Below are positions 6,598 to 23,730 of a stretch of 64,000 nt of DNA, in pieces. How positions within the stretch are numbered: position 1 is the first letter of the stretch; the number at the start of each line of letters is the position of its first letter. Under the pieces are notes generated by a model. The model did not search any database, had not been told where the DNA came from, and was given only the letters and a program-made list of their open reading frames with translations. The stretch comes from an uncultured Gemmatimonadales bacterium (GTDB taxonomy: Bacteria > Gemmatimonadota > Gemmatimonadetes > Gemmatimonadales > GWC2-71-9): NCBI GenBank assembly GCA_963730915.1, contig CAVSTR010000004.1, forward strand, positions 407,014 through 471,013, in the 5' to 3' direction. The position numbers and the translations under genes were made by a program.

Positions 6598-6637
6598 CAA
6601 AAAACCGCCGGTTCACCTTGATAGGCGGCTCGGCGGT
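6598..6637 (-). terminator. Possible Rho-independent terminator on the minus strand
   Basis: Minus strand reads ACCGCCGAGCCGCCTATCAAGGTGAACCGGCGGTTTTTTG: a 6-bp GC stem plus a T6 tail. The loop is long. Confidence 0.5.
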
Positions 6638-6640
6638 CTT

Positions 6641-7245
6641 GGGACCTTCGCGGGCGCCACGACGGCGCGGAGGGGGCGAGGACCCGTGGCTTTGCGACAC
6701 CGGCTTTCGCCGGTTGTGCTCTTAGCTATGTGGTGGTGGCGAGGGGTACCATACCGCGCGGTACTGACCTCGTCAATGCTCCATCGTGCGGCTGAAGGTC
6801 AGCTGGTTCATCTTTCCTGCGGCCCTCCGCCTGTGTTCCGTGTCTCCTCTTCCCCGAGAGCAGATCCTTAACTCACTAAATGCGAAGAACGCTGACGATC
6901 TAAGTGCGGGTTTCGGATCGCGGTATTTAACTCGCGCGGTGTTTACTACGACACCCGGGGAAGAGAAGAGCAAGAGCTAGCTAAGCAATATCGGGATCGT
7001 GCCGACCAGGTAGAGGATAAAGGATATTATAGGTTTGCTGCCACCTTGAGACAGTTAGCTGCAGCCTACGAGCGGGATGCCAAGTTAGCTGCCAAGGAAA
7101 CGTTTGACCTCTAGGGACATGGGCCGTGTAGTGCTTGGGTTGCGGCCTATAAACGCGTGTGAACTTTCCAGCTGACTTTGGGTTGACTCCTGAACGGAGT
7201 GCTCGCTCGCGGGCCCACCAAGACTTTGCTGGCAGGTTGAAGGTT
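6641..7245. other. Low-GC (~50%) non-coding or decayed island of unknown nature
   Basis: There are stops in all frames. The only protein-like stretch is a start-less plus-strand reading 6896-7114. The minus strand has a GNRA-capped hairpin ACCGGC-GAAA-GCCGGT. Confidence 0.4.
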
Positions 7246-7265: not shown

Positions 7266-9163
7266 CTAGCGATATCCGGCGGCTTGAAGCTGGAACAGCT
7301 CCGAGTACAGTCCTCCCAGCTCCACCAGCGCCTCGTGGGTCCCCTGTTCCACCAGCTCCCCACCCTTCAGCACCAGGATCCGGTCGGCCATCCGAACCGT
7401 CGAGAACCGGTGCGAGATCAGCACCGCCATCCTTCCTTTCGTCAGCTCTGAGAACCTGAGGAACACCTCGTACTCCGCCCGGGCATCCAGTGCCGCGGTG
7501 GGCTCGTCCAGGATCAGGAGCTGCGCGTCCCGCATGTAGGCCCGGGCCAGCGCCACCTTCTGCCACTCGCCGCCCGAGAGATCCACCCCGCCCTCGAACC
7601 GCTTCCCCAGCATCTGGTCGTACTGGCCTGCGAGCCGCTGGGCCACCGAATCGGCCAGGCTCCGCTCCGCCGCGGCCCTGATCGCGGGATCGTCCTCGAT
7701 CCGGGCGATGTTGCCCACGGCGATGTTCTCCTTCAGGGCGAAATCGTAGCGCACGAAGTCCTGGAAGATGACGCCGACGTTCTTCCGCAGGCTGTCGACG
7801 TCGTACTCCCGGAGATCCACGCCGTCGAGCAGGATCCGCCCCTCGTCCGGGTCGTAGAGCCGAGCCAGCAGCTTCACCAGCGTGGTCTTGCCGGCGCCGT
7901 TCTCGCCCACCAGCGCGATCCGCTCGCCCGGCGCCAGCGCGAAGTTGAGATGCCGCACCGCCCAGCTCTCCGCGCGGGGATACTTGAACCCCACACCCTC
8001 GAACACGAAGCCCTGCGTGATCGGCACCGGCACCTGCCGCGCACCCGGATTGCGCCGGATGCTGGGCTCGATGTCGAGGAAGCTGAACAGATCCTCCAGA
8101 TAGAGACTCTGCTCGAACACCTGCGACAGGGAGAGCAGCACCCGCTGGATCAGATCGCGGCTCTGCCGGAACGAGCCGGCGAGGAAGGTCAGAACTCCGA
8201 TGGTGAACACCCCGGCCCGCGACTCGTGCCCGATGACCGTCAAGTAGATGATGACGGCATACGCCCCGTAGTACCCCAGCGTGCCCACGAACGACAGCAA
8301 GGTGGACGCGACGCTCCGCCGGACCGCCAGGTTCCGGTTGGCCCGGTAGAACTCGTCCGACAAGCCGGTCGTACCGCCCGACCAGAAAATCCGACAGCCC
8401 GAAGAGCTTGAGCTCCTTGGCCGAGATGTCGCTGGCGCCGATGTAGCGGAGGTAGTCGAGCTGACGCCGCTCGGGAGTCCATGAATACAGGAGCGAGTAG
8501 CCCAGCGAGGCGAAGTGGGTCTCGCCCAGGAGCGACGGCAGCACCGCGACCACCAGCAACAGCAGCAGCCAGGGTACGTAGACCGTGAGCGCCGCGGCCA
8601 GGGTGATCAGGGTGATCAGGTCCTGCAGCGTCGCCAGCAACATCGTAAACAGGCCGATGCGGCCGACCGTCTGCCGCCGGGCCCGCTCCAGCTTGTCGTA
8701 GATCTCCGCGTCCTCGAACTGCTCCAGGTCGAGATTGGCGGCGTGCTTCATGAGCTGCACGCTGGTCCGGTTGGCGAACAGGTCTCCCAGGAGGCTCTCG
8801 AGCAGGGCCGATACTCGGCTCAATCCTTCGCCCACCAGGGCGATGCCGAGCTCGATGCCGACCAGGATCGCGAGACGGCTCCACGCCGACCTCGCCTCCC
8901 GCCTGCGCCACGTTGATCGAGTGCACCACCTCGTCCACGATGAGCTTCCCGATCCAGAGCACCGCCAGCGGAATGACCGACCGGGCGATCCGCAGCAGAA
9001 GGATTCCGACCACGTAGCCCGGCTTGGTCTCCCACACCATCCGGAGAAGCTTGGGCAGATGCCGAAGCGCCTGGAGCCGCTCGCGCCAGGAGCGGTCCGG
9101 CGCGGCCGGCATGCGTCCGCGTCCGTTGCCGCGAATGACGGGGTGTTGGAGAGGGAGGGACAT
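7266..9163 (-). pseudogene. ABC transporter, fused permease/ATPase (MsbA-like exporter), broken into three frames as assembled
   Basis: TM segments are in ORFs 8240..9163 and 7246..8835. The NBD is in ORF 7266..8363 (GENGAGKTT Walker A, LSGGEWQ signature, LLILDEPT Walker B). Frame changes lie near 8885 and 8360. Confidence 0.85.
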
Positions 9164-9164
9164 A

Positions 9165-9450
9165 CTCTAAAAGTAAGGGGACTAGGACAGGCGTGAGCGG
9201 GAAAAACGAAAACGTGAGCGGGACGAGGAGCAGCGTGAACCCGAGCGGGTACGGGTCACAATATCATCCGAGCGAGTAATCTGGGGGATTGCTTCGGCGC
9301 TCCGCGCCTCGCAATGACTGTTTGGCTGTTCCCGCTTACCGCTCACGTTTGTCCTAGCCCCGCTCACGCTTTTTCATACAGCCCCCCACCGCTCACGTTT
9401 GTCCCTTCGCTTCGCTCAGGGCGTGCCTAGCCCCGCTTACTCTTTTACCT
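9165..9450. repeat. Palindromic cassette A: GTGAGCGG-type left arm, ~65-nt core, CCGCTCAC-type right arm
   Basis: The left arm 9170-9255 is similar to the reverse complement of the right arm 9331-9450. The core 9256-9320 is shared with cassette B. Confidence 0.8.
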
Positions 9451-9485
9451 TAGGTCGTATCAGCTTCCCACCCCAGGAGACCTCC

Positions 9486-10214
9486 ATGGCAGTGAGTGCG
9501 GCGGCAGTACGGACGGCTCGGCGAACTCGGCGCTTCTACGTCGGAATGGCGATCGCCATTACCATCACCGTATTCGTCGGGTTCTCCCGCAGCTATTTCC
9601 TCAAATCATGGTACGGCACGCGGGAGCTGAGCGGCCTGCTCCACGTCCACGGCCTGATCTTCACCGCGTGGGTTCTGTTCTTCCTCTCCCAATCGGTGCT
9701 GGTGGCAACCGGCAGAACGTACCTGCACCGCAGAATGGGTATCGGCGGGGCCGTGCTGGCCGGGCTGGTGGTGATCGTGGGGACTGTGGTCGCGATCCAC
9801 CGGGCCAAGACGGGCGTGTCCCCCATTCCCGGGGTGCCGCCGCTTGGTTTCCTTGCGATTCCTCTTTTCGATATGGTCGTGTTTGCAGTGCTGGTGAGCT
9901 CAGCCATCTACTTCCGTCACCGGCTGGAGGCCCACAAGCGGCTGATGACGTTGTCCATGATCAGCCTGCTTGCGGCTCCGATAGCCCGGATGAACTTTCT
10001 CCCGCTGCCGCCCGGCCCACCCACGTTCTTCGGTCTGGCGGATCTCTTCATCGTGGTCCTGGTGGTGTATGATCTCTCGACTCGAGGGAAGGTACATCCT
10101 GCCACGATCTGGGGCGGGCTTCTCATTGTCGCCTCGCAGCCATTCCGGCTGATGATCTCCGGAACCGCGCCCTGGCTGGCGTTTGCGAGCTGGCTAACGG
10201 GTACTGCAACGTGA
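9486..10214 (+). CDS. Integral membrane protein (about 6 TM), family not recognised
   Basis: AGGAGA RBS 5 nt before the ATG at 9486, then repeated hydrophobic segments. The stop TGA at 10212-10214 lies inside the first GTGAGCGG unit of cassette B. Confidence 0.7.
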   Translation: MAVSAAAVRTARRTRRFYVGMAIAITITVFVGFSRSYFLKSWYGTRELSGLLHVHGLIFTAWVLFFLSQSVLVATGRTYLHRRMGIGGAVLAGLVVIVGTVVAIHRAKTGVSPIPGVPPLGFLAIPLFDMVVFAVLVSSAIYFRHRLEAHKRLMTLSMISLLAAPIARMNFLPLPPGPPTFFGLADLFIVVLVVYDLSTRGKVHPATIWGGLLIVASQPFRLMISGTAPWLAFASWLTGTAT

Positions 10215-10450
10215 GCGGGACAAACAGCGTGAGCGGGACTAGGACGAGCGTAAGCCGTGAGCGGAGAGATAATGTTATCCGAACGAGTGAGCCCGAGGAT
10301 GGCTTCGGGCTGCCCCCTCGCAATGACTCCGTCGTAAACGCCCGCTTACGGCTGCCCTCGTCCCGCTCACGCCTTCAGGCCCCCGCTCACCGCTTACGCT
10401 TGTTCTAGTCCCGCTCACGCTTTTCGTTGACCCCGTTTACCGTTCACGCC
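10205..10450. repeat. Palindromic cassette B (same family as A)
   Basis: 10227-10264 pairs with 10383-10420: of 38 positions, 1 is a mismatch and 2 are G-T. The core is at 10266-10330. Confidence 0.85.
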
Positions 10451-11157
10451 ATGTCGCAAACCGCCCTCATCACCGGCGCCACTGAAGGCATCGGCCGAGC
10501 CACCGCCTTCGCGCTCGCACGCGCCGGATACCGGGTGGGCGTGTGCGCGCGCACCGAGGCCAAGGTCCGGAAGCTGCGTCAAGGAGCTCGATGCCGAAGG
10601 CGTCGAGGCCGCCGGAGCGAGCGCCGACGTAGGCGACCCGGGTCAGGTCGACCGCATGGTGAAGCAGATCACAGGCTCGCTCGGCGAGATCGATGTGCTG
10701 ATCAACAACGCCGGAGTCCTGATCGGAAAGCCGTTCGAGGAGCTGACGCTGGACGAGTGGGACACCACCATGAACACCAACGTCCGGAGCCTCTTCCTGG
10801 TAACCCGAGCAGTGATTCCGGGAATGCGTGAACGGCGGCACGGATCCATCGTGAACGTCGCCAGCCTGGCCGGCCGCAACGGCTTCGTGGGCGGCACCGC
10901 CTACACCGCCTCCAAGCACGCGGTGCTCGGGTTCAGCCGCTCACTCATGCTGGAAGTGCGAAAGGACAACGTCCGCGTGATCGCGGTCTGTCCCGGCTCG
11001 GTGGACACCAGTATGCTGCGCGATCAGCCGATGCTTAAGTCGGAGCCCAGCCGCATCCTCCAGCCCGAGGACGTGGCCGCGGACGATTCTGCAGGCGCTC
11101 ACCCTCCCCGCACGCGCCCTGGTGAGCGAGCTCGACATCCGGCCGACGAATCCGTGA
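10451..11157 (+). pseudogene. SDR family oxidoreductase with two frame changes as assembled
   Basis: ITGATEGIGRATA, NNAG and YTASKHAV are present. Frame changes lie near 10581 and 11080. My re-framed C-terminus reads TILQALTLPARALVSELDIRPTNP*. Confidence 0.8.
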
Positions 11158-11171
11158 GGAGGGGCGGACGA

Positions 11172-11195
11172 GTCGGAGGGTCGGAGGGTCGGAGG
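11172..11195. repeat. Tandem octamer GTCGGAGG x3
   Basis: Read directly from the sequence, immediately after the SDR stop. Confidence 0.8.
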
Positions 11196-11238
11196 GCTGA
11201 CAGGCGAACATAGGATGGTGATATGACGACAACTGCTG

Positions 11239-11463
11239 ATGCCTGCTAACACTTCATCTGTGCTGATCTCCCGCTGCATCTGCAAGGCCACCGAGTTCGC
11301 GGACCTGCTCGGCCCCGCCCGCGAGCACGGCTGGAGCCTGGCCGACCTGGTCCGGGAAACCGGCTGCGGCGGACAGTGCGGCCTCTGCCGTCCCTATATC
11401 AGCCGGATGCTCCGAACCGGCGAGACCGAGTTCCACGAGATCATCACCGAGGAACCCTCCTGA
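11239..11463 (+). CDS. BFD-like (2Fe-2S)-binding domain protein
   Basis: Cys pattern CIC ... CGGQCGLC, typical of bacterioferritin-associated ferredoxin-like domains. Confidence 0.7.
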   Translation: MPANTSSVLISRCICKATEFADLLGPAREHGWSLADLVRETGCGGQCGLCRPYISRMLRTGETEFHEIITEEPS

Positions 11464-11477
11464 CGGCCCGCCCTCAT

Positions 11478-13040
11478 GTGACCGTCCGCCGTCTGGCGGC
11501 TCGGATCGAGCGCTGGTGGCGGCGTCTGTCCTACACCGGCTCGATCGTCGGCGTCGCGATCATCATCGCCTGGCTCGGACTCTGGCTGTTCCGCCAGAAT
11601 GACGAGGTTGGGCTGCTGCTGACCTCGGTGGCGACGCTGCTCACGCTGATCACGTTTCGCCACATCCGGGAGTTGGCCGAAGCCCAGAAGGAGTCGCTCC
11701 AGCGCGCCCTGGCTCAGGCCGATCGGCGGAATCGCGAGCTGGAACGGCTCCGCCATCTGGCTGGAACGCTGCTCGCCGGCGCCGACCTCGAGAGCCTGAT
11801 GAAGGAGGTCGCTCGAACCGCGAGCGAGCTGCTCGAGGCAGACAGCGGCGGCGTCACGCTGGTGGTGGAGGAAGGCCGCTTCCTGCGGTTGATGGCGGCA
11901 TGCGGAACGCTCGAGCCGTTGGTTGGCCTGTTGCTGCCGATGGACGGATCGCTGCTCGGCTACGTGGTGAGCCAGGATACGCCGCTGGTCTCGGATGACA
12001 TGAGCGCCGATCCGCGCAGCTATCACCGCCCCAACATGTCGGTGACGCTGAAGACGGCGGCGATGATTCCGCTTCGGTCAGCCGGGGTGCCCATCGGCAC
12101 GGTGAGCGTCTACAACCGGCGCGACGGCCAGCCGTTCAGCGACCACGATCTCCGCCTGCTCCAGATCCTGGGCGACCAGGTGGTCGTGGGCCTCGACCGC
12201 GCCTCGGTGCTGCAGGAGAGCCGGCGCAACGAGCTCGCGCTGCGCACCAAGAACGTCGAGCTGCAGCGCGCCACCCAGCTCAAGAACGAGTTCCTCACCA
12301 ACATGTCGCACGAGCTGCGTACGCCTCTCAACGCCATCATCGGCTTCTCGGATCTGCTGCTGGACGGCGGTACCGGCGAGCTCAGCAACCCGCAGCGCGA
12401 GTTCACCGAGGCGGTGTCGCGAAACGGCAAGCACCTGCTCTCGCTGATCAACACCGCGCTCGATCTCTCCAAGATCGAAGCCGGCCGGATGACGCTCACC
12501 CTTGCGATGACGGATCTGCGCGAGGCCATCAAGGACGCGGTGGCCGACACGGCCAGCCTCCGGACCGCCAAGCGGCAGGAGTGCACGCTCGAGCTCGACT
12601 CCGACTCGCTGTCGATCCTGGCCGACGGAGGCCGCATTCGTCAGATCCTTTTCAACCTCCTGTCCAACGCGTCGAAGTTCACGGGCGAAGGCGGCAAGAT
12701 CTCGCTTGCGGCGGTGCGGACCAACGTTCCGCTGCGGCAGCCGGCCGAGCGCGCCGGCGAGCGCGCCCGGTTCGTCAATCAGGATGTGGTATGGGTGTCG
12801 GTGTCGGACGAGGGTATCGGCATTAAGCGGGCCGACATGCCCAAGCTGTTTCAGGAGTTCAGCCAGGTGGACAGCTCGTCCAGCCGCCGGGCGCAGGGCA
12901 CCGGCCTGGGGCTCGCCCTCTGCAAGAAGTTCGTGGAGATGCACGGCGGCACCATCGGCGCCGACTCCGTGTTCGGGAAGGGGGCGGCGTTCTGGTTCCT
13001 CCTGCCGGCTGAGGGGCCTGTACGCAGAGCTAATGCATAA
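11478..13040 (+). CDS. Sensor histidine kinase (TM, GAF, HisKA, HATPase_c); no adjacent response regulator
   Basis: H-box MSHELRTPLNAIIGFSDLL and G-box GTGLGLALCKKFVEMHGG. The start is placed at the in-frame GTG at 11478, just after the upstream stop. Confidence 0.88.
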   Translation: MTVRRLAARIERWWRRLSYTGSIVGVAIIIAWLGLWLFRQNDEVGLLLTSVATLLTLITFRHIRELAEAQKESLQRALAQADRRNRELERLRHLAGTLLAGADLESLMKEVARTASELLEADSGGVTLVVEEGRFLRLMAACGTLEPLVGLLLPMDGSLLGYVVSQDTPLVSDDMSADPRSYHRPNMSVTLKTAAMIPLRSAGVPIGTVSVYNRRDGQPFSDHDLRLLQILGDQVVVGLDRASVLQESRRNELALRTKNVELQRATQLKNEFLTNMSHELRTPLNAIIGFSDLLLDGGTGELSNPQREFTEAVSRNGKHLLSLINTALDLSKIEAGRMTLTLAMTDLREAIKDAVADTASLRTAKRQECTLELDSDSLSILADGGRIRQILFNLLSNASKFTGEGGKISLAAVRTNVPLRQPAERAGERARFVNQDVVWVSVSDEGIGIKRADMPKLFQEFSQVDSSSSRRAQGTGLGLALCKKFVEMHGGTIGADSVFGKGAAFWFLLPAEGPVRRANA

Positions 13041-13042
13041 AG

Positions 13043-13082
13043 AGCGTGAGCGGGACAAGGACGAGCGTGAGCGGTAAGCGGG
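13043..13082. repeat. Left arm of cassette C (AGCGTGAGCGGGACAAGGACGAGCGTGAGCGGTAAGCGGG)
   Basis: Reverse complement of 13503-13543, except for one bulge and two G-T pairs. Confidence 0.9.
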
Positions 13083-13145
13083 AAAACGTCACGATCGGCG
13101 CCTGTTTGGAATAAGCGTCAAGAGTGCTTGTGCGTATCGTGACGG

Positions 13146-13502
13146 ATGCGAGACCACAAGTCATTGCATGCATGGCAGGAAGCGCGTGGGGTCGTCCTCG
13201 GTACTATCGAGCTGGCACGTACTAGCTGGAAGCCGTATGCATCAGCTCTCTTTTCTCAGCTTCAGCGGGCATCCTTATCAGTGCAGTTGAACATCGCGGA
13301 GGGATATGCATACGGCCGATCGCGTTCGTTTACACGGCATGTGTCGATCGCCTATGGTTCTGCCGTCGAGACAGGAGAGCTATTGGAGGTCGCGCTGGAT
13401 GCAAAGATCGTGGCGAAAGAAGTAGGAGATCATCTTCTCGAGAGAAACCGCAGGAGTCAGCGACTACTGCTCGGTATGTTGCAAAGAATGAAGGCTACCT
13501 AA
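13146..13502 (+). CDS. Four-helix-bundle protein (23S rRNA intervening-sequence protein family, Avd-like fold)
   Basis: Family hallmarks: LHAWQEARGVV.., LQRASLSVQLNIAEGY, and SIAYGSAVETGELLEVA. Length is 118 aa. Confidence 0.85.
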   Translation: MRDHKSLHAWQEARGVVLGTIELARTSWKPYASALFSQLQRASLSVQLNIAEGYAYGRSRSFTRHVSIAYGSAVETGELLEVALDAKIVAKEVGDHLLERNRRSQRLLLGMLQRMKAT

Positions 13503-13574
13503 CCCTGCTTACCGCTCACGCTTGTCCTTGTCCCGCTTACGCTTTTTTGTCCCTGTCCTAGTCCCGCTCACGCC
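13503..13574. repeat. Right arm of cassette C (CCGCTCAC / CCGCTTAC / GTCCTAG units)
   Basis: Pairs with 13043-13082. Extra units extend to 13574. Confidence 0.9.
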
Positions 13575-13594
13575 ATTCCAGCTATACTGATCCT

Positions 13595-13945
13595 ATGACC
13601 GCGCGACTGATCCAGGCCAAGGCTCTCCTCCTGCTGCTGGTGTTCCTGGCGGCCGGGACCAGCCTGCCCAGCCTGGACGCCCTGGCGTTCCACGGGAACG
13701 CGGCCGGGAGCGAGCGGTCCCGCACTCACATCGAGCCGGCCGGCGGCTGTCTCAGCCACACCGATGGGTGCAGCCTCGGACGCACTGCCTCCGGCTCCGG
13801 AGCGGTCGCCGCGGCTGAACCCGAGTCCCGTCTCGTCCCCACGGACAGTCCGTTCATCCAGCAGTCCCTACCACTCCAGCCAGTCTGCGCCGATACCGGC
13901 GCGCTCCCTCACAGCCGAGCCCCTCCGACTCTCCGCTACGTCTGA
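13595..13945 (+). CDS. Hypothetical small exported protein with His/Cys cluster (possible metal-related)
   Basis: N-terminal hydrophobic segment and the HIEPAGGCLSHTDGC cluster. It lies first in the metal-uptake-like cluster. Confidence 0.5.
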   Translation: MTARLIQAKALLLLLVFLAAGTSLPSLDALAFHGNAAGSERSRTHIEPAGGCLSHTDGCSLGRTASGSGAVAAAEPESRLVPTDSPFIQQSLPLQPVCADTGALPHSRAPPTLRYV

Positions 13946-13993
13946 TCGTTCGCGCCGGTAGCGGCGCGACCCTCTCACGGATCGGAGAACCAC

Positions 13994-15380
13994 ATGCACG
14001 CTTGTGGTCGTACGGCCATTCTGGTGGGCACCTGCTGCCTGGGGCTGGCAATTCCCGCCCGGGCACAGACACCTGCCGCACTGGATTCACTGCGAAGGAG
14101 CCTCACCGCCACGTCGGCTCGAATCGACTCACTCGAGGCCGGTCTGTGTCCCGGTGGCTCGATCAGTCACTTCCGGCGAACCGGCAACGCCGTCACCGAC
14201 AGCATGGCGGCGACGCTGGAGCGGCTGGACCGCCGAGTCGCGGCGCTGCGAGCGAGTCGATGCACCGGCGCTCCGGCTCAGCCGGCGGACACCTCGGACG
14301 ATCTGGCCGCGCTCCGCGCCGCTGCGGCCGCCGCGGCGGGACAACCCGCACCATCCGACACGACCGAAAGAGCCGACACCGTCCCCTCGGCGGAAGCGGC
14401 TCCTCCACAGACAGCGGGGCCGAGGAGCGCCAATCTTCTCAATCCGGAGATCAGCGCCACGGGTGACGTGCGCCTGGTGGCAGCAGAGAACGCCCGCGGT
14501 GAGGCGGTGGCGCGAGAGTTCGAGTTCGCTTTTCAGTCGGCGCTCGATCCCTACTCCAACACCAAGATCTTCCTGGCGGCGAGCGATGAAGGCGTCGAGA
14601 TCGAGGAAGGCTACATCTACTACACCGGACTGCCGGGGCGGCTCCGGCTCGACTTCGGAAAGTTCCGCCAGCAGGTGGGCGACCTCAACCGCTGGCACGG
14701 CCACGCTCTTCCTGAGACCGAATATCCGCTGGTGTATCAGCGCTACTTCTCCGCGGAAGGCCTCGCCGGAGTCGGCCTCTCGCTCTACACCTCGCTCCCC
14801 TTCTCGCTCGGTGGCGCCACCCACGAGGTATGGCTGCAGGGCACCAGCGTCGAGAGCGATCCGCTGTTCGGCGGCGGCCGGGATCTGCTGTTCCTCGGTC
14901 GGCTCCAGAATTTCTGGCAGCTGAGCCGCAGCACCTACGCCCAGGTGGGCATCACCGGACTCGGCGGCGACAACGGAGGTGCGGATCTCAAGAGCCGGAT
15001 GGCAGGACTCGATCTCCGGGTGACCTATCGCCCACCCGAGGCCGCCACCCGCCGCGAGATAACGTTCCGGGCCGAGGGCTACCGGCTCCACACCGATGAT
15101 CTGGGCAATCACCGCGAACCGCTACGGCGGATTTCTCGATCTGTCCGCTCGCCTCACCCGCCGCTGGATACTCGGCGCCCGCTACGACCACGTCGACGCG
15201 CCGAGAGGTCCGGACGATTCCGAATGGCGCGTCACGCCGAACATCACCTGGTGGCAGAGCGAGTTCGTGTACCTCCGGCTCGAGGGCGAGCATCGGAATA
15301 CCGAGCTGGAGGGGAGCCGGAACATGCTGTCGTTGCAGGCGGTGTGGGCCATGGGACCGCATAAGCATGAGACGTATTGA
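13994..15380 (+). pseudogene. Outer-membrane beta-barrel/porin-like protein, one frame change near 15100
   Basis: Signal peptide, coiled-coil N-region, and alternating beta-strand pattern. After re-framing the C-terminus reads ..NMLSLQAVWAMGPHKHETY (ORF 15096..15380). Confidence 0.7.
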
Positions 15381-22016: not shown

Positions 22017-22364
22017 GTGTCCACCGAGACCATTACTTCGCCCTGCGCGTGCGGCGCCCGGCCGGGCGACGGAACTCACGCCGTCGAGGTCGATCCCGAA
22101 GCCAAGCACGCCATCGTCAGTCGACTACGGCGAATCGAGGGTCAGGTTCGGGGGCTCCAGAAGATGGTGGACGAAGAGCGATACTGTGCCGATGTGCTGA
22201 TGCAGCTGTCGTCGGTGCAGGAAGCGTTGCGTGGTGTGGGCCGCGCGCTGCTGGAGAATCACCTGAGACATTGCGCCACCGAGGCGATCCGCTCTGCCGA
22301 CCCCGCGAAGACGGAAGCTATCTACGAGGAGTTGATGGAGCTGATGTATAAGAACGCGAGGTAA
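22017..22364 (+). CDS. csoR: CsoR/RcnR family metal-sensing transcriptional repressor
   Basis: RLRRIEGQVRGLQKMV..RYCADVLMQLSSV..HLRHC. GTG start follows an AAGGAG RBS. Confidence 0.88.
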   Translation: MSTETITSPCACGARPGDGTHAVEVDPEAKHAIVSRLRRIEGQVRGLQKMVDEERYCADVLMQLSSVQEALRGVGRALLENHLRHCATEAIRSADPAKTEAIYEELMELMYKNAR

Positions 22365-22438
22365 GCGGGTAAGCGGGTAAGCGGGTAAGCACGGGTAAGC
22401 GGGTAGCGGAGCTAAGCGGTAAGCGGGTAAGCGGGTAA
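22361..22438. repeat. Tandem octamer array GTAAGCGG, about 9-10 units
   Basis: Read directly from the sequence. The csoR stop TAA lies inside the first unit. Confidence 0.9.
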
Positions 22439-22449
22439 GACGAGAAGGT

Positions 22450-22537
22450 GTCACCCTGAGCGAAGCGAAGGGGCCGGAAAAGTATCCTTCTGGGATACCT
22501 TCGTGCTAACACCCCCGCGTCCTGAACTCAGGGTGAC
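22450..22537. repeat. 88-nt hairpin module GTCACCCTGAG...CTCAGGGTGAC with nested stems
   Basis: The 11-bp terminal inverted repeat encloses inner pairs CGAAGG/CCTTCG and GTATCC/GGATAC. A 19-nt block is identical to 9403-9421 on the opposite strand. Confidence 0.85.
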
Positions 22538-23730
22538 GATTTTCCGATTTTTTCTCTCTTCCGCGCCTTGGCGGCGCCGTCTTTCCCGTCCTTCCCGACC
22601 TTCTTCGACTCTTCCGCCCGCTCATCCCTGAACTTCAGCGCCGCACGATACTCCTTCACCAGTCGCCCCATCATTGCCTCCCGCCGAGCGTACAACCGCT
22701 TGAGCGGACGACTCTCGTGGCGCTCTCTGGCATACGCCGTCAGCAGCGGCAGCCCAATGGAGCTGTCGGTATACACCACCACCGTTCCCGGAAGCTGGTC
22801 CGGATCGATCTTGCCCCAGCTCACCGCTTCAGCGGGGGTGGCGCCTGAAAGGCCGCCAGTGTCGGGACGGGCATCGGTGATCTGCAGGAAGTAGTCGTGG
22901 CCCCGCTCGTCGATGCCGAGCACCTCCTGGATCTGCGGCTCGGTCTGAAGCATGAAGTTCTTGGGGCTGCCTCCGCCGACGATCAAGACTCCGCTCTTGC
23001 CTCCAGACCGCTTGGCCTCCAGCACGATGCTGGCGGTCTCGTTCACATCAGCGCTGACATCGAACCTGAGCTTGCTGCCGGCAAGCGCCTGCTCCGCCAC
23101 GTTCATCCCGATCGAGCTGTCTCCCGGGGAGCTGGTGTAGATCGGCACCTCGAATTCGTGAGCGGCTGAGAGCACCGAGCGCCGGGAGAGGCCGAGCGCG
23201 CGCTCCCGCTCGCGGACGTAGCCACCCAGCAGGTAGTGGTACTCCGCGGAGCTCATCGGTCGCTGGAATTCTTGCCGAGCCGACACCTCGCGAACGAACG
23301 CGTCGGTCGAGAGCAGGACGTTGTAATCGAAGAAGATGTCGTAGATCCGCACCACGCCCTTGTCGCGCAGCTCCACATCGTCGGCGCCGGGAGTGCCGCG
23401 ATGCATCGCGAGGCCCAGTGCGAAATGCGCATCGTGGTAGAGGTTGGCTCCGGTGGAGATGATCCAGTCCACGAAGCCGGACTCCATCAGCGGAATGAGG
23501 CAGCTCATGCCGAGCCCCGCCGGCGTCATCGCACCGGTGAGCGTCATTCCCACGGTGGTGTCCGGCGCGAGCATTCGTTCGGTAAACAGCTGACAGCCCT
23601 CCCTCAGGCGGCCCGCGTTGTACGCCAGGAAGGCGTTGTCGATCAGCTCCGCGACGGTTTCCCTGCCGGTCGTTGCCTTTGGATCGATCCGCTGGCCGCG
23701 CAGGTACTTCGCGGAAGGTCGGCTGTTCAT
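22528..23730 (-). CDS. Deoxyhypusine synthase-like (homospermidine synthase-like) protein with Lys-rich C-terminal tail
   Basis: DHS family blocks: [28 protein letters not shown]. Start placed at the ATG at 23730, which overlaps the upstream stop. Confidence 0.85.

Follow-up and report, generated by a model that had tools for sequence, protein, structure and literature searches.

The locus described here raises the question whether the architecture of the intervening sequences (IVSs) of ribosomal RNA (rRNA) can also exist as a discrete, possibly mobile unit outside rRNA. It is situated in a 64,000-nt stretch (the window) of the genome of an uncultured Gemmatimonadales bacterium (contig CAVSTR010000004.1), in which a gene for a four-helix-bundle (4HB) protein lies in the loop of a long hairpin, directly behind a histidine kinase gene. 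The IVSs of 23S rRNA with an S23p/PF05635 open reading frame (ORF) are found in Leptospira, Coxiella and Brucella. Knowledge of both the rRNA IVSs and the S23p/4HB ORFs dates back to the early 1990s; to our knowledge, neither has an accepted origin or function, and the 4HB family occurs dispersed over bacterial genomes as a 'four helix bundle protein' with no explanation. In the reading preferred here, to which a probability of about 0.6 is assigned, the locus contains a discrete IVS-type hairpin cassette outside rRNA, which consists of the 4HB gene (XCC0516/S23p/Avd superfamily), a promoter-bearing leader and two inverted short-repeat arrays (typically 7 nt, ~5 units) and behaves as one piece.

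The two arms of the hairpin (Table 1) form a gapless inverted repeat of 44 nt with 91 % complementarity. Their local-alignment score is 68 (z = 19.5 against shuffled sequences), and for random positions in related contigs the 99th percentile of the arm score was 28. The arm coordinates given in the initial annotation of the sequence, 13043-13082 and 13503-13543, were off by only 1-4 nt from the computed ones. The pairing comprises 40 Watson-Crick pairs and four G·T positions; all 4/4 place a left-arm G against a right-arm T, with 0 of the opposite type and 0 of any other. Mismatches of this kind had been reported earlier at two positions together with a bulged T; the type of mismatch was correct, the number is four, and the bulge proved unnecessary. 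The kinase stop codon (TAA, 13038-13040) contains the start of the left arm, an arm that is the same in the orthologues L074, L077 and L047 (L numbers denote fetched loci). The right arm is closed by a T6 run (13543-13548) and followed by an extra unit, in which 13555-13573 pairs with 13044-13062 (19 nt, 95 %). In an alignment with L074 and L172 this outer unit corresponds to the sole right arm of L074, and it marks the outer edge of the cassette.

The protein encoded in the loop is a genuine member of the PF05635/TIGR02436 family. Profile hidden Markov model searches gave an E value of 4e-19 (69.1 bits, cutoff 33.8) for PF05635 '23S_rRNA_IVP' and of 2e-18 (66.6 bits, cutoff 24) for TIGR02436 'four helix bundle protein'. 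The dN/dS values of 0.05-0.14 in comparison with three relatives point to purifying selection and hence to a functional gene. The AlphaFold (AF2) monomer model (pLDDT 91.4) contained helices 4-26, 30-56, 60-85 and 91-117, and its best structural matches in Foldseek were the 4HB structures 2GSC and 2RLD (TM 0.80-0.86); Avd of the diversity-generating retroelements (DGRs; 4DWL, TM 0.75-0.82, and 8UB7) was more distant. The R-x3-S-x3-N-x2-E motif is present, with R41, S45, N49 and E52 invariant in the family alignment, and the leading G of the GxxRxxxSxxxNxxE motif described for the 4HB family (PMC3936711) is replaced by Q38 in the window clade. Databases contain more than 1,200 homologues of the ORF, of which the nearest come from metagenome-assembled genomes of Gemmatimonadales, and the 4HB family comprises 2,327 clusters at 50 % identity (E ≤ 0.001).

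It had been proposed in the initial annotation that ORFs of this family should be collected and inspected for bracketing by inverted oligomer arrays. For this purpose 71 genomic and 80 metagenomic loci were fetched, and 66 and 69 of them, respectively, were scored for arms by local alignment of the 250 nt upstream with the reverse complement of the 250 nt downstream. For the background, 560 positions were drawn at random from the same contigs and the 99th percentile was taken as the threshold; direct repeats served as a control. RNAduplex applied to 220-nt flanks was discarded due to its long global pairings and poor discrimination, and the strict local alignment was used instead. The metagenome scan with a diverse alignment used one peptide pattern; loci of the same clade were gained in this way, phylogenetic breadth was not.

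Inverted arms above the background were present at 63/66 genome loci and 67/69 metagenome loci, i.e. at 130/135 loci of Gemmatimonadota relatives, and the direct-repeat control of the flanks stayed at the background level. The repeat period was 7 in 92/123 arms, the median arm measured 35 nt and the median number of units was 4.7. The unit varies by lineage (GGTGAAC, GTGAAGA, GGTGAGC, CGATAGA, GGGAGAA, GGTGAGG and others), yet both arms of a cassette always share one unit, which amounts to co-variation on a large scale. The architecture is thus conserved in about 130 relatives, with the arm sequence shifting in step on both sides, and the purine-rich array forms the 5' arm in all loci but five. 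The k-mer cosine of the arms was 0.03 for 4HB proteins with less than 40 % identity and 0.57 for those with more than 80 %, and divergent 4HB copies within one genome often had unrelated arms, so the arms travel with the ORF lineage and not with the host genome.

Arms were also detected at a single Patescibacteria locus and at the Bacteroidales loci recovered, and 4/6 copies on cyanobacterial plasmids were flanked by clear inverted heptamer arrays (of the TAGGGAG, GGGTGTA, AGGTGAC and AGCTTTT types). The cyanobacterial 4HB copies are located between cas6 and cas4 (in two genera) or between the subunits of ribonucleotide reductase (RNR). The array-framed genes between cas6 and cas4 lie on plasmids, in type I-D CRISPR-cas loci of Pseudanabaena and Anabaena sp. 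90 (L167:1263-1956 and L170:1280-1971). The published link of '23S_rRNA_IVP' with cas loci (PMC3936711) may accordingly reflect insertion of a cassette and not a cas function. In Xanthomonas, a four-unit array of the GGGAATC type overlaps the start region of XCC0516 (PDB 2GSC), the founding member of the family and known from a crystal structure, 6 nt from the neighbouring gene (PMC4692102 supplement); no connection between GGGAATC arrays and the 4HB protein family is drawn in PMC4692102.

The same data bear on the explanation that an ordinary host gene happens to lie amid generic intergenic repeats resembling the repetitive extragenic palindromic (REP) or short tandemly repeated repetitive (STRR) sequences, i.e. 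terminators, mRNA stabilisers or slippage products, with no cassette and no mobility involved. Units of the same type do occur nearby in hairpins that lack an ORF and in solitary arrays, in the window and at many of the loci, the A-runs and T-runs at the outer arm ends resemble bidirectional terminators, short hairpins turn over fast, and Xanthomonas genomes contain ~70 convergent heptamer array pairs each, mostly not beside 4HB genes (PMC4692102). This explanation is nevertheless regarded as unlikely, since random positions in the same contigs are almost never bracketed in the way in which the 4HB genes are, and since the arm type follows the ORF lineage.

Generic repeats are also difficult to reconcile with the comparison of individual loci. 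The paralogue L075, situated after a Mur ligase gene and encoding a protein 89 % identical to that of the window, matches the window solely over 13045-13545, so that the similarity stops exactly at the outer arm edges. Since the matching span comprises arm, interior and arm, the cassette is a discrete unit. The orthologous gaps between the kinase gene and the small-protein gene were located through the downstream porin-like gene. In L174-L176 (porin identity 68-72 %) the site is empty, with neither ORF nor arms, and the TATACT box and ATG belonging to the small gene come 1-20 nt behind the kinase stop codon. L173 (porin 76 %) carries the same arms around a loop without ORF. L172 (porin 80 %) retains one left-arm unit, nucleotides 4-77 of the ORF and the outer right arm, and is an internally deleted, dead cassette with a genuine ORF remnant. 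The full forward cassette is present in the window, L072-L074 and L076-L085, and L047 contains a full cassette with unchanged arms and the entire interior flipped. ORF-less hairpins with cassette arms thus exist, and at least one of them arose through internal deletion. The comparison of the orthologous locus, suggested earlier as a check for insertion, therefore revealed empty, full, inverted, deleted and ORF-less states and not one identical sequence in all relatives.

DNA inversion through the arms is seen in L047 and in the pair L029 and L034, in which the flanks are ~90 % identical, the interior is 84 % identical and aligned in the opposite relative direction, and the breakpoints fall within the arms. 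In L128 and L141 the flanks are 94 % and 98-99 % identical and the junctions identical, and the cassettes have different arms, 4HB genes 73 % identical and opposite orientations; this is cassette replacement, for which L117 and L156 provide a second case. Such near-identical backgrounds holding different sets of arms and ORF again speak against generic repeats. Presence or absence, internal deletion and replacement of the cassette at fixed junctions, together with the arms at 130/135 loci, support the view put forward in the initial annotation that an IVS-like, possibly mobile cassette is not restricted to rRNA.

Inverted repeats bounding a segment that is seen in both orientations are also a hallmark of invertible switches. 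A programmed switch (phase variation), with the arms as invertase sites and flipping that turns the 4HB gene or its neighbours on and off, would account for the 90 opposite and 217 same orientations among locus pairs with homologous flanks and for the two verified inversions with breakpoints in the arms. However, only one true inversion and three replacement pairs were found among the 26 pairs with flanks ≥90 % identical, and such a low number of events indicates that inversion and replacement proceed on an evolutionary scale and not rapidly. No recombinase gene is adjacent, which together with the slow flipping argues that the cassette is not an invertase switch. In addition, the putative promoter lies inside the invertible segment, so that inversion would not switch the ORF, and the arms differ between cassettes of one genome, contrary to what a single dedicated invertase would require. 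Phase variation is thus a very unlikely explanation.

Table 1. Positions of the cassette components and of further repeat elements in the window
Feature	Position	Strand	Description
Left (5') arm	13039-13082	+	purine-rich array of GCGTGAGCGG / GGGACAAGGAC / GTAAGCGGG units
Leader, left arm to ATG	13083-13145	+	local 9-bp stem and -10-like box
4HB protein gene	13146-13502	+	118 aa, PF05635 / TIGR02436 match
Right (3') arm	13504-13547	+	pyrimidine-rich, complement of the left arm
Extra outer right-arm unit	13554-13575	+	TGTCCTAGTCCCGCTCACGCC
ORF-less hairpin A	9177-9400		cassette-type arm units; ~100-nt loop with small GTCATTGCGAGG...CGAAGCAATC stem-loop
ORF-less hairpin B	10207-10434		arms 10220-10264 / 10383-10427, 45 nt, 89 % complementary
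Composite element	22358-22620		(GGTAAGCG)n array, inner palindrome GTCACCCTGAGCGAAGCGAAGGGG...CTCAGGGTGAC, pyrimidine-rich array

Between the left arm and the ATG, the leader contains a 9-bp local stem (13087-13095 / 13136-13144) and a -10-like TATCGT sequence at 13135-13140, 5 nt before the ATG; the combination AGTGCTTG..TATnnT is kept among close relatives. In 112 unique regions upstream of 4HB genes a positional signal was apparent, with A at -11/-10 and T at -7/-6, and TAnnnT occurred in 49/112 of them in comparison to 3/112 in a control window. The ATTGG sequence recurs at -42..-38, and Shine-Dalgarno-like motifs were found in just 2/112 regions. No common fold of the leader from the left arm to the ATG was detected across the relatives, and only the -10-like box and ATTGG emerged. 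The conserved box 6-12 nt before the ATG is, judging by its sequence, a probable internal promoter that would give a leaderless or near-leaderless mRNA, in which case the mRNA of the ORF would start downstream of the left arm. A GC-phase strand caller that had been validated points to a 4HB ORF that in most cases runs antisense to its neighbours or converges with them, and that is never placed in divergent gaps; this pattern is tentative because the ORF-based cross-check miscalled known cases.

The stem had been described in the initial annotation as essentially perfect only in plus-strand RNA, i.e. in the strand that also encodes the ORF. For the window copy this was borne out by the folding of both strands suggested at the same time: the region 13030-13590 gave -241.5 kcal/mol (z -6.2) on the plus strand and -195.8 kcal/mol (z -2.7) on the minus strand, the stem alone gave -88.8 and -73.7 kcal/mol, respectively, and the strand asymmetry of this copy is real. 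The generalisation did not hold. The G·U-type mismatches over 129 loci were divided into 158 on the ORF strand and 156 on the opposite one, and for hairpins A and B neither strand folds better than the other. The four same-direction transitions in the window stem are not significant alone (two-sided p about 0.125), and the G/A alternation GTGAGCGG/GTAAGCGG is a general array polymorphism. The proposed tie between the stem RNA and the ORF strand likewise had to be abandoned in view of this lack of family bias, the flipped cassette in L047 and the position of the -10-like box downstream of the left arm.

These results also decide how a strand-specific structured RNA is to be judged, in which the plus-strand helix would be co-transcribed with the ORF and would, for example, stabilise or process its mRNA. 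The four mismatches of the window copy, all of them G·U on the ORF strand, and the preference for that strand by 15 kcal/mol (stem) and 46 kcal/mol (whole region) speak in its favour. The stem, however, accounts for just 15 kcal/mol, and the remaining difference comes from the coding interior; this, the even division of mismatches in the family, the strand-neutral hairpins A and B, the promoter-like box beyond the left arm and the presence of the G/A alternation among arrays in general make such an RNA most improbable.

In the preferred reading, that of a hairpin cassette, the entire unit with its arms would be inherited, lost, replaced and duplicated together. In a read-through transcript on either strand the arms would pair into a stem of double-stranded RNA (dsRNA) with a length of at least 30-45 bp. 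An inverted repeat is the same when read on either strand, so that transcripts crossing it from either side could form the stem. By analogy with the rRNA IVSs, RNase III would cut this stem, and cutting would let the insertion be tolerated between or inside transcription units such as cas6|cas4, cmr3|cmr2 (PMC3936711), the RNR subunits and rRNA. The ORF itself would be expressed from its own putative internal promoter, whatever the orientation of the cassette. More speculatively, a pentameric protein might bind the ~five-unit arrays of its own cassette and help to maintain or spread it; the correspondence of a pentameric protein family with arms that hold about five heptamers is likewise a speculation.

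Several points weigh against this reading. The distribution of TSD-like (target-site duplication-like) matches was equal to that in a control with mismatched flanks, although the array edges are fuzzy and could hide short TSDs. No gene for a transposase, integrase, reverse transcriptase (RT) or recombinase was found beside the cassette in the window and the examined relatives, and no viral copies were found in GenBank phages or IMG/VR. It is the distribution of the cassette that suggests its mobility, and it is the analogy with rRNA IVSs that suggests processing of the stem by RNase III. Cassettes could have been replaced when horizontally transferred DNA recombined homologously in the flanks. 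With no G·U bias in the family, the complementarity of the arms could persist purely by gene conversion at the DNA level, and intra-element recombination would also keep the arms matched. If the mRNA starts at the putative internal promoter and lacks the left arm, the stem would be irrelevant to the ORF transcript. Finally, the sample outside Gemmatimonadota is small.

The missing TSD signal would suit a retroelement-linked module, in which the 4HB protein, like Avd, would be the partner of a distant RT, the heptamers would be templated or slippage products and the RNA hairpin would be the form that spreads. The kinship to Avd in structure and in sequence (4DWL, TM 0.75-0.82; 8UB7; PMC10053308), the strict polarity of the short tandem repeats with the purine-rich array at the 5' side, and the fact that the cassette can be transcribed as a hairpin are compatible with it. 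Near every examined copy, however, RT, a template/variable repeat (TR/VR) pair and other DGR parts are absent, and a search for a TR/VR-type direct repeat in 12800-13800 was negative. The protein is much closer to the non-DGR structures 2GSC and 2RLD than to Avd. PADLOC and PHROGs gave no match, and viral copies were likewise lacking, hence no sign of a link to defence systems or phages. A retroelement origin is therefore distinctly unlikely.

The likeness of the cassette to rRNA IVSs is close. Common to both are homologous proteins, a long terminal stem whose loop contains the ORF, tandem heptamers and the coexistence of versions with and without the ORF. The IVS-like architecture claimed in the initial annotation matches in particular the Coxiella 23S IVS, the stem of which contains 3-4 tandem GACAGAT heptamers just upstream of the S23p ORF; their number varies by strain, and the first of them is the site of RNase III cleavage (PMC4990558). 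Arms built of heptamer arrays are thus common to rRNA and non-rRNA copies. PF05635 genes have also been reported in rRNA insertions of the candidate phyla radiation (CPR; bioRxiv 10.1101/2024.02.27.582315). In contrast to rRNA IVSs, the cassette sits between or at the ends of protein-coding genes, in both orientations and with its own promoter-like box. Its long inverted repeats enclose an ORF as in an IVS, but it does not lie inside a 23S/16S rRNA helix, and no sarcin-ricin or peptidyl transferase centre (PTC) signatures of 23S rRNA were found in ~150 fetched loci. Not being located in rRNA, it falls outside the strict definition of an IVS.

Terminal inverted repeats (TIRs) and multiple dispersed copies, which are found here, are also features of MITEs (miniature inverted-repeat transposable elements). 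The Correia elements of Neisseria and the enterobacterial repetitive intergenic consensus (ERIC) are hairpin-forming MITEs processed by RNase III, present in many copies, tolerated in operons and variable in presence between strains. Their TIRs, which fold in read-through transcripts, are defined, and they have TA target duplication and no ORF. The cassette differs from them in arms built of tandem oligomers, in the lack of a TSD signal and in a conserved ORF as the usual cargo, and with no TSD and an ORF carried it is not a classical MITE. Avd of the DGRs has a related 4HB fold and its assembly is pentameric (4DWL, 8UB7; PMC10053308), but Avd genes have not been reported as framed by inverted arrays. 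The cassette has neither an adjacent RT nor template/variable repeats, and is consequently not a DGR; its protein is nearer to non-DGR members.

Free-standing 4HB genes (XCC0516, PDB 2GSC; BT_0352, PDB 2RLD; '23S_rRNA_IVP' of cas loci, PMC3936711) belong to the same family, share the fold and likewise appear as a lone small gene between unrelated genes. The reports on them treat the gene alone; flanking arrays and gain, loss, inversion or replacement are not in them. The STRR sequences of cyanobacteria and the GGGAATC arrays of Xanthomonas (PMC4692102) resemble the cassette arms in being tandem 7-nt repeats with one strand G-rich, intergenic, often in convergent stem-loop pairs and of variable length among close relatives. 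They have been described as generic, G-quadruplex-forming simple sequence repeats (SSRs) without a gene link, whereas the cassette arrays are paired around one gene and their unit co-varies with the gene lineage. No published description of the architecture outside rRNA, or of a link between 4HB genes and heptamer arrays, was found in the full-text literature, subscription-only papers being outside reach; this agrees with the remark in the initial annotation that no formal description was known.

The non-rRNA 4HB copies share the IVS architecture and behave as units of their own, with empty, flipped, deleted and swapped alleles as their traces. The finding connects rRNA IVSs, heptamer arrays and orphan 4HB genes, three oddities described separately, offers a shared account of the heptamer arrays in several phyla, and makes the old IVS/4HB puzzle testable through comparative genomics and simple biochemistry. 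It also calls for caution in reading 4HB genes as functional partners of host operons such as the cas loci, and points to the cassettes as a natural source of long dsRNA or of cruciform-forming sequence within operons. A much broader view, tentative and on the whole doubtful, would regard array-framed PF05635 genes as pan-bacterial replaceable hairpin cassettes, rRNA IVSs as copies that landed in rRNA, STRR and GGGAATC arrays as ORF-less relics and '23S_rRNA_IVP' of cas loci as a hitch-hiker, with the pentamer recognising ~five arm units and promoting maintenance or spread without transposase or target duplication.

Units of the GCGTGAGCGG/GGGAC type, as in the cassette arms, also build the two ORF-less hairpins A and B in the window (Table 1), which are 77 % identical to each other, loop included, and flank the gene for a 271-aa membrane protein. 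At the orthologous locus L047 hairpin A is largely absent and hairpin B is different. The possibility that the loops of A and B are remnants of a 4HB ORF was considered and rejected: they hold a separate REP-like palindrome module, which is found also away from arrays. This palindrome family has a consensus of about GTCATCCTGAGCGAAGCGAAGGA, with a 5-bp stem and a GAGCGnAGCGA loop, gave 26 matches in 12 sources and is without an Rfam match. Its members come as inverted pairs 50-80 nt apart, some nested in oligomer-array hairpins and some alone, e.g. between the porin and znuA genes. Sites were recorded at window position 22450 and at L047:3914/3971, L076:3131/3211, L172:5441, L173:3420/3499 and 5426, and L176:802/885 and 5431/5489. 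In the composite element the (GGTAAGCG)n array comprises ~10 units and the pyrimidine array is not complementary to it; its polarity is like that of the cassette, the complementarity of arms is absent.

Very long arrays were encountered in several relatives. L009:5643-5909 contains 215 matching k-mers over ~270 nt, the aligned arms of L101 reach 137 nt, and at L032:4480-5450 a second 4HB-like ORF lies on the opposite strand between ~90-nt GGGGAAACG arrays. These cases indicate large expansion and contraction of the arms. At L128:300-360, L141 (reverse complement):1330-1380 and L032:4700-4790 an upstream ORF with an FeS cluster (nth/mutY-like, ...GECPVRAVC...) runs into the left arm. The array provides the last codons and the stop codon of this ORF, and these vary between cassette alleles.

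The location of the cassette between a histidine kinase gene and a metal-uptake cluster, outside rRNA, was reported correctly in the initial annotation. The upstream neighbour encodes a GAF/HisKA/HATPase_c kinase, and the downstream neighbours encode a 116-aa protein, a porin-like protein, ZnuA and an ABC-3 permease; no rRNA was detected in the 64-kb window with Rfam at the gathering threshold. The small gene after the cassette starts at 13595 and is preceded, 6 nt before its ATG, by the TATACT box (window 13583-13597), which is kept in the relatives with empty sites (L174-L175 gaps) and suggests, from its position, leaderless transcription of this gene. In L174-L175 the box lies one base after the kinase stop codon, so the uninterrupted junction is very tight.

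The sole Rfam match of the window at the gathering threshold was a full-length c-di-GMP-I riboswitch aptamer at 6621-6730 on the minus strand (47.3 bits, gathering score 35). In the region 9000-14000 searched at E <= 5, neither the cassette nor the hairpins gave an Rfam match, and just two unrelated sub-threshold matches appeared. A SAM-IV riboswitch-like sub-threshold match at 9068-9181 on the plus strand, directly upstream of hairpin A (25.7 bits, gathering score 38, E 0.18), is probably due to chance. The porin-like gene (13994-15380) is frameshifted near 15100: the frame 15096-15377 corresponds to residues 374-462 of the orthologue P0140 at 83 % identity, and the annotated porin frame ends in a non-homologous sequence. 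The frameshift reflects either a sequencing error or a pseudogene.

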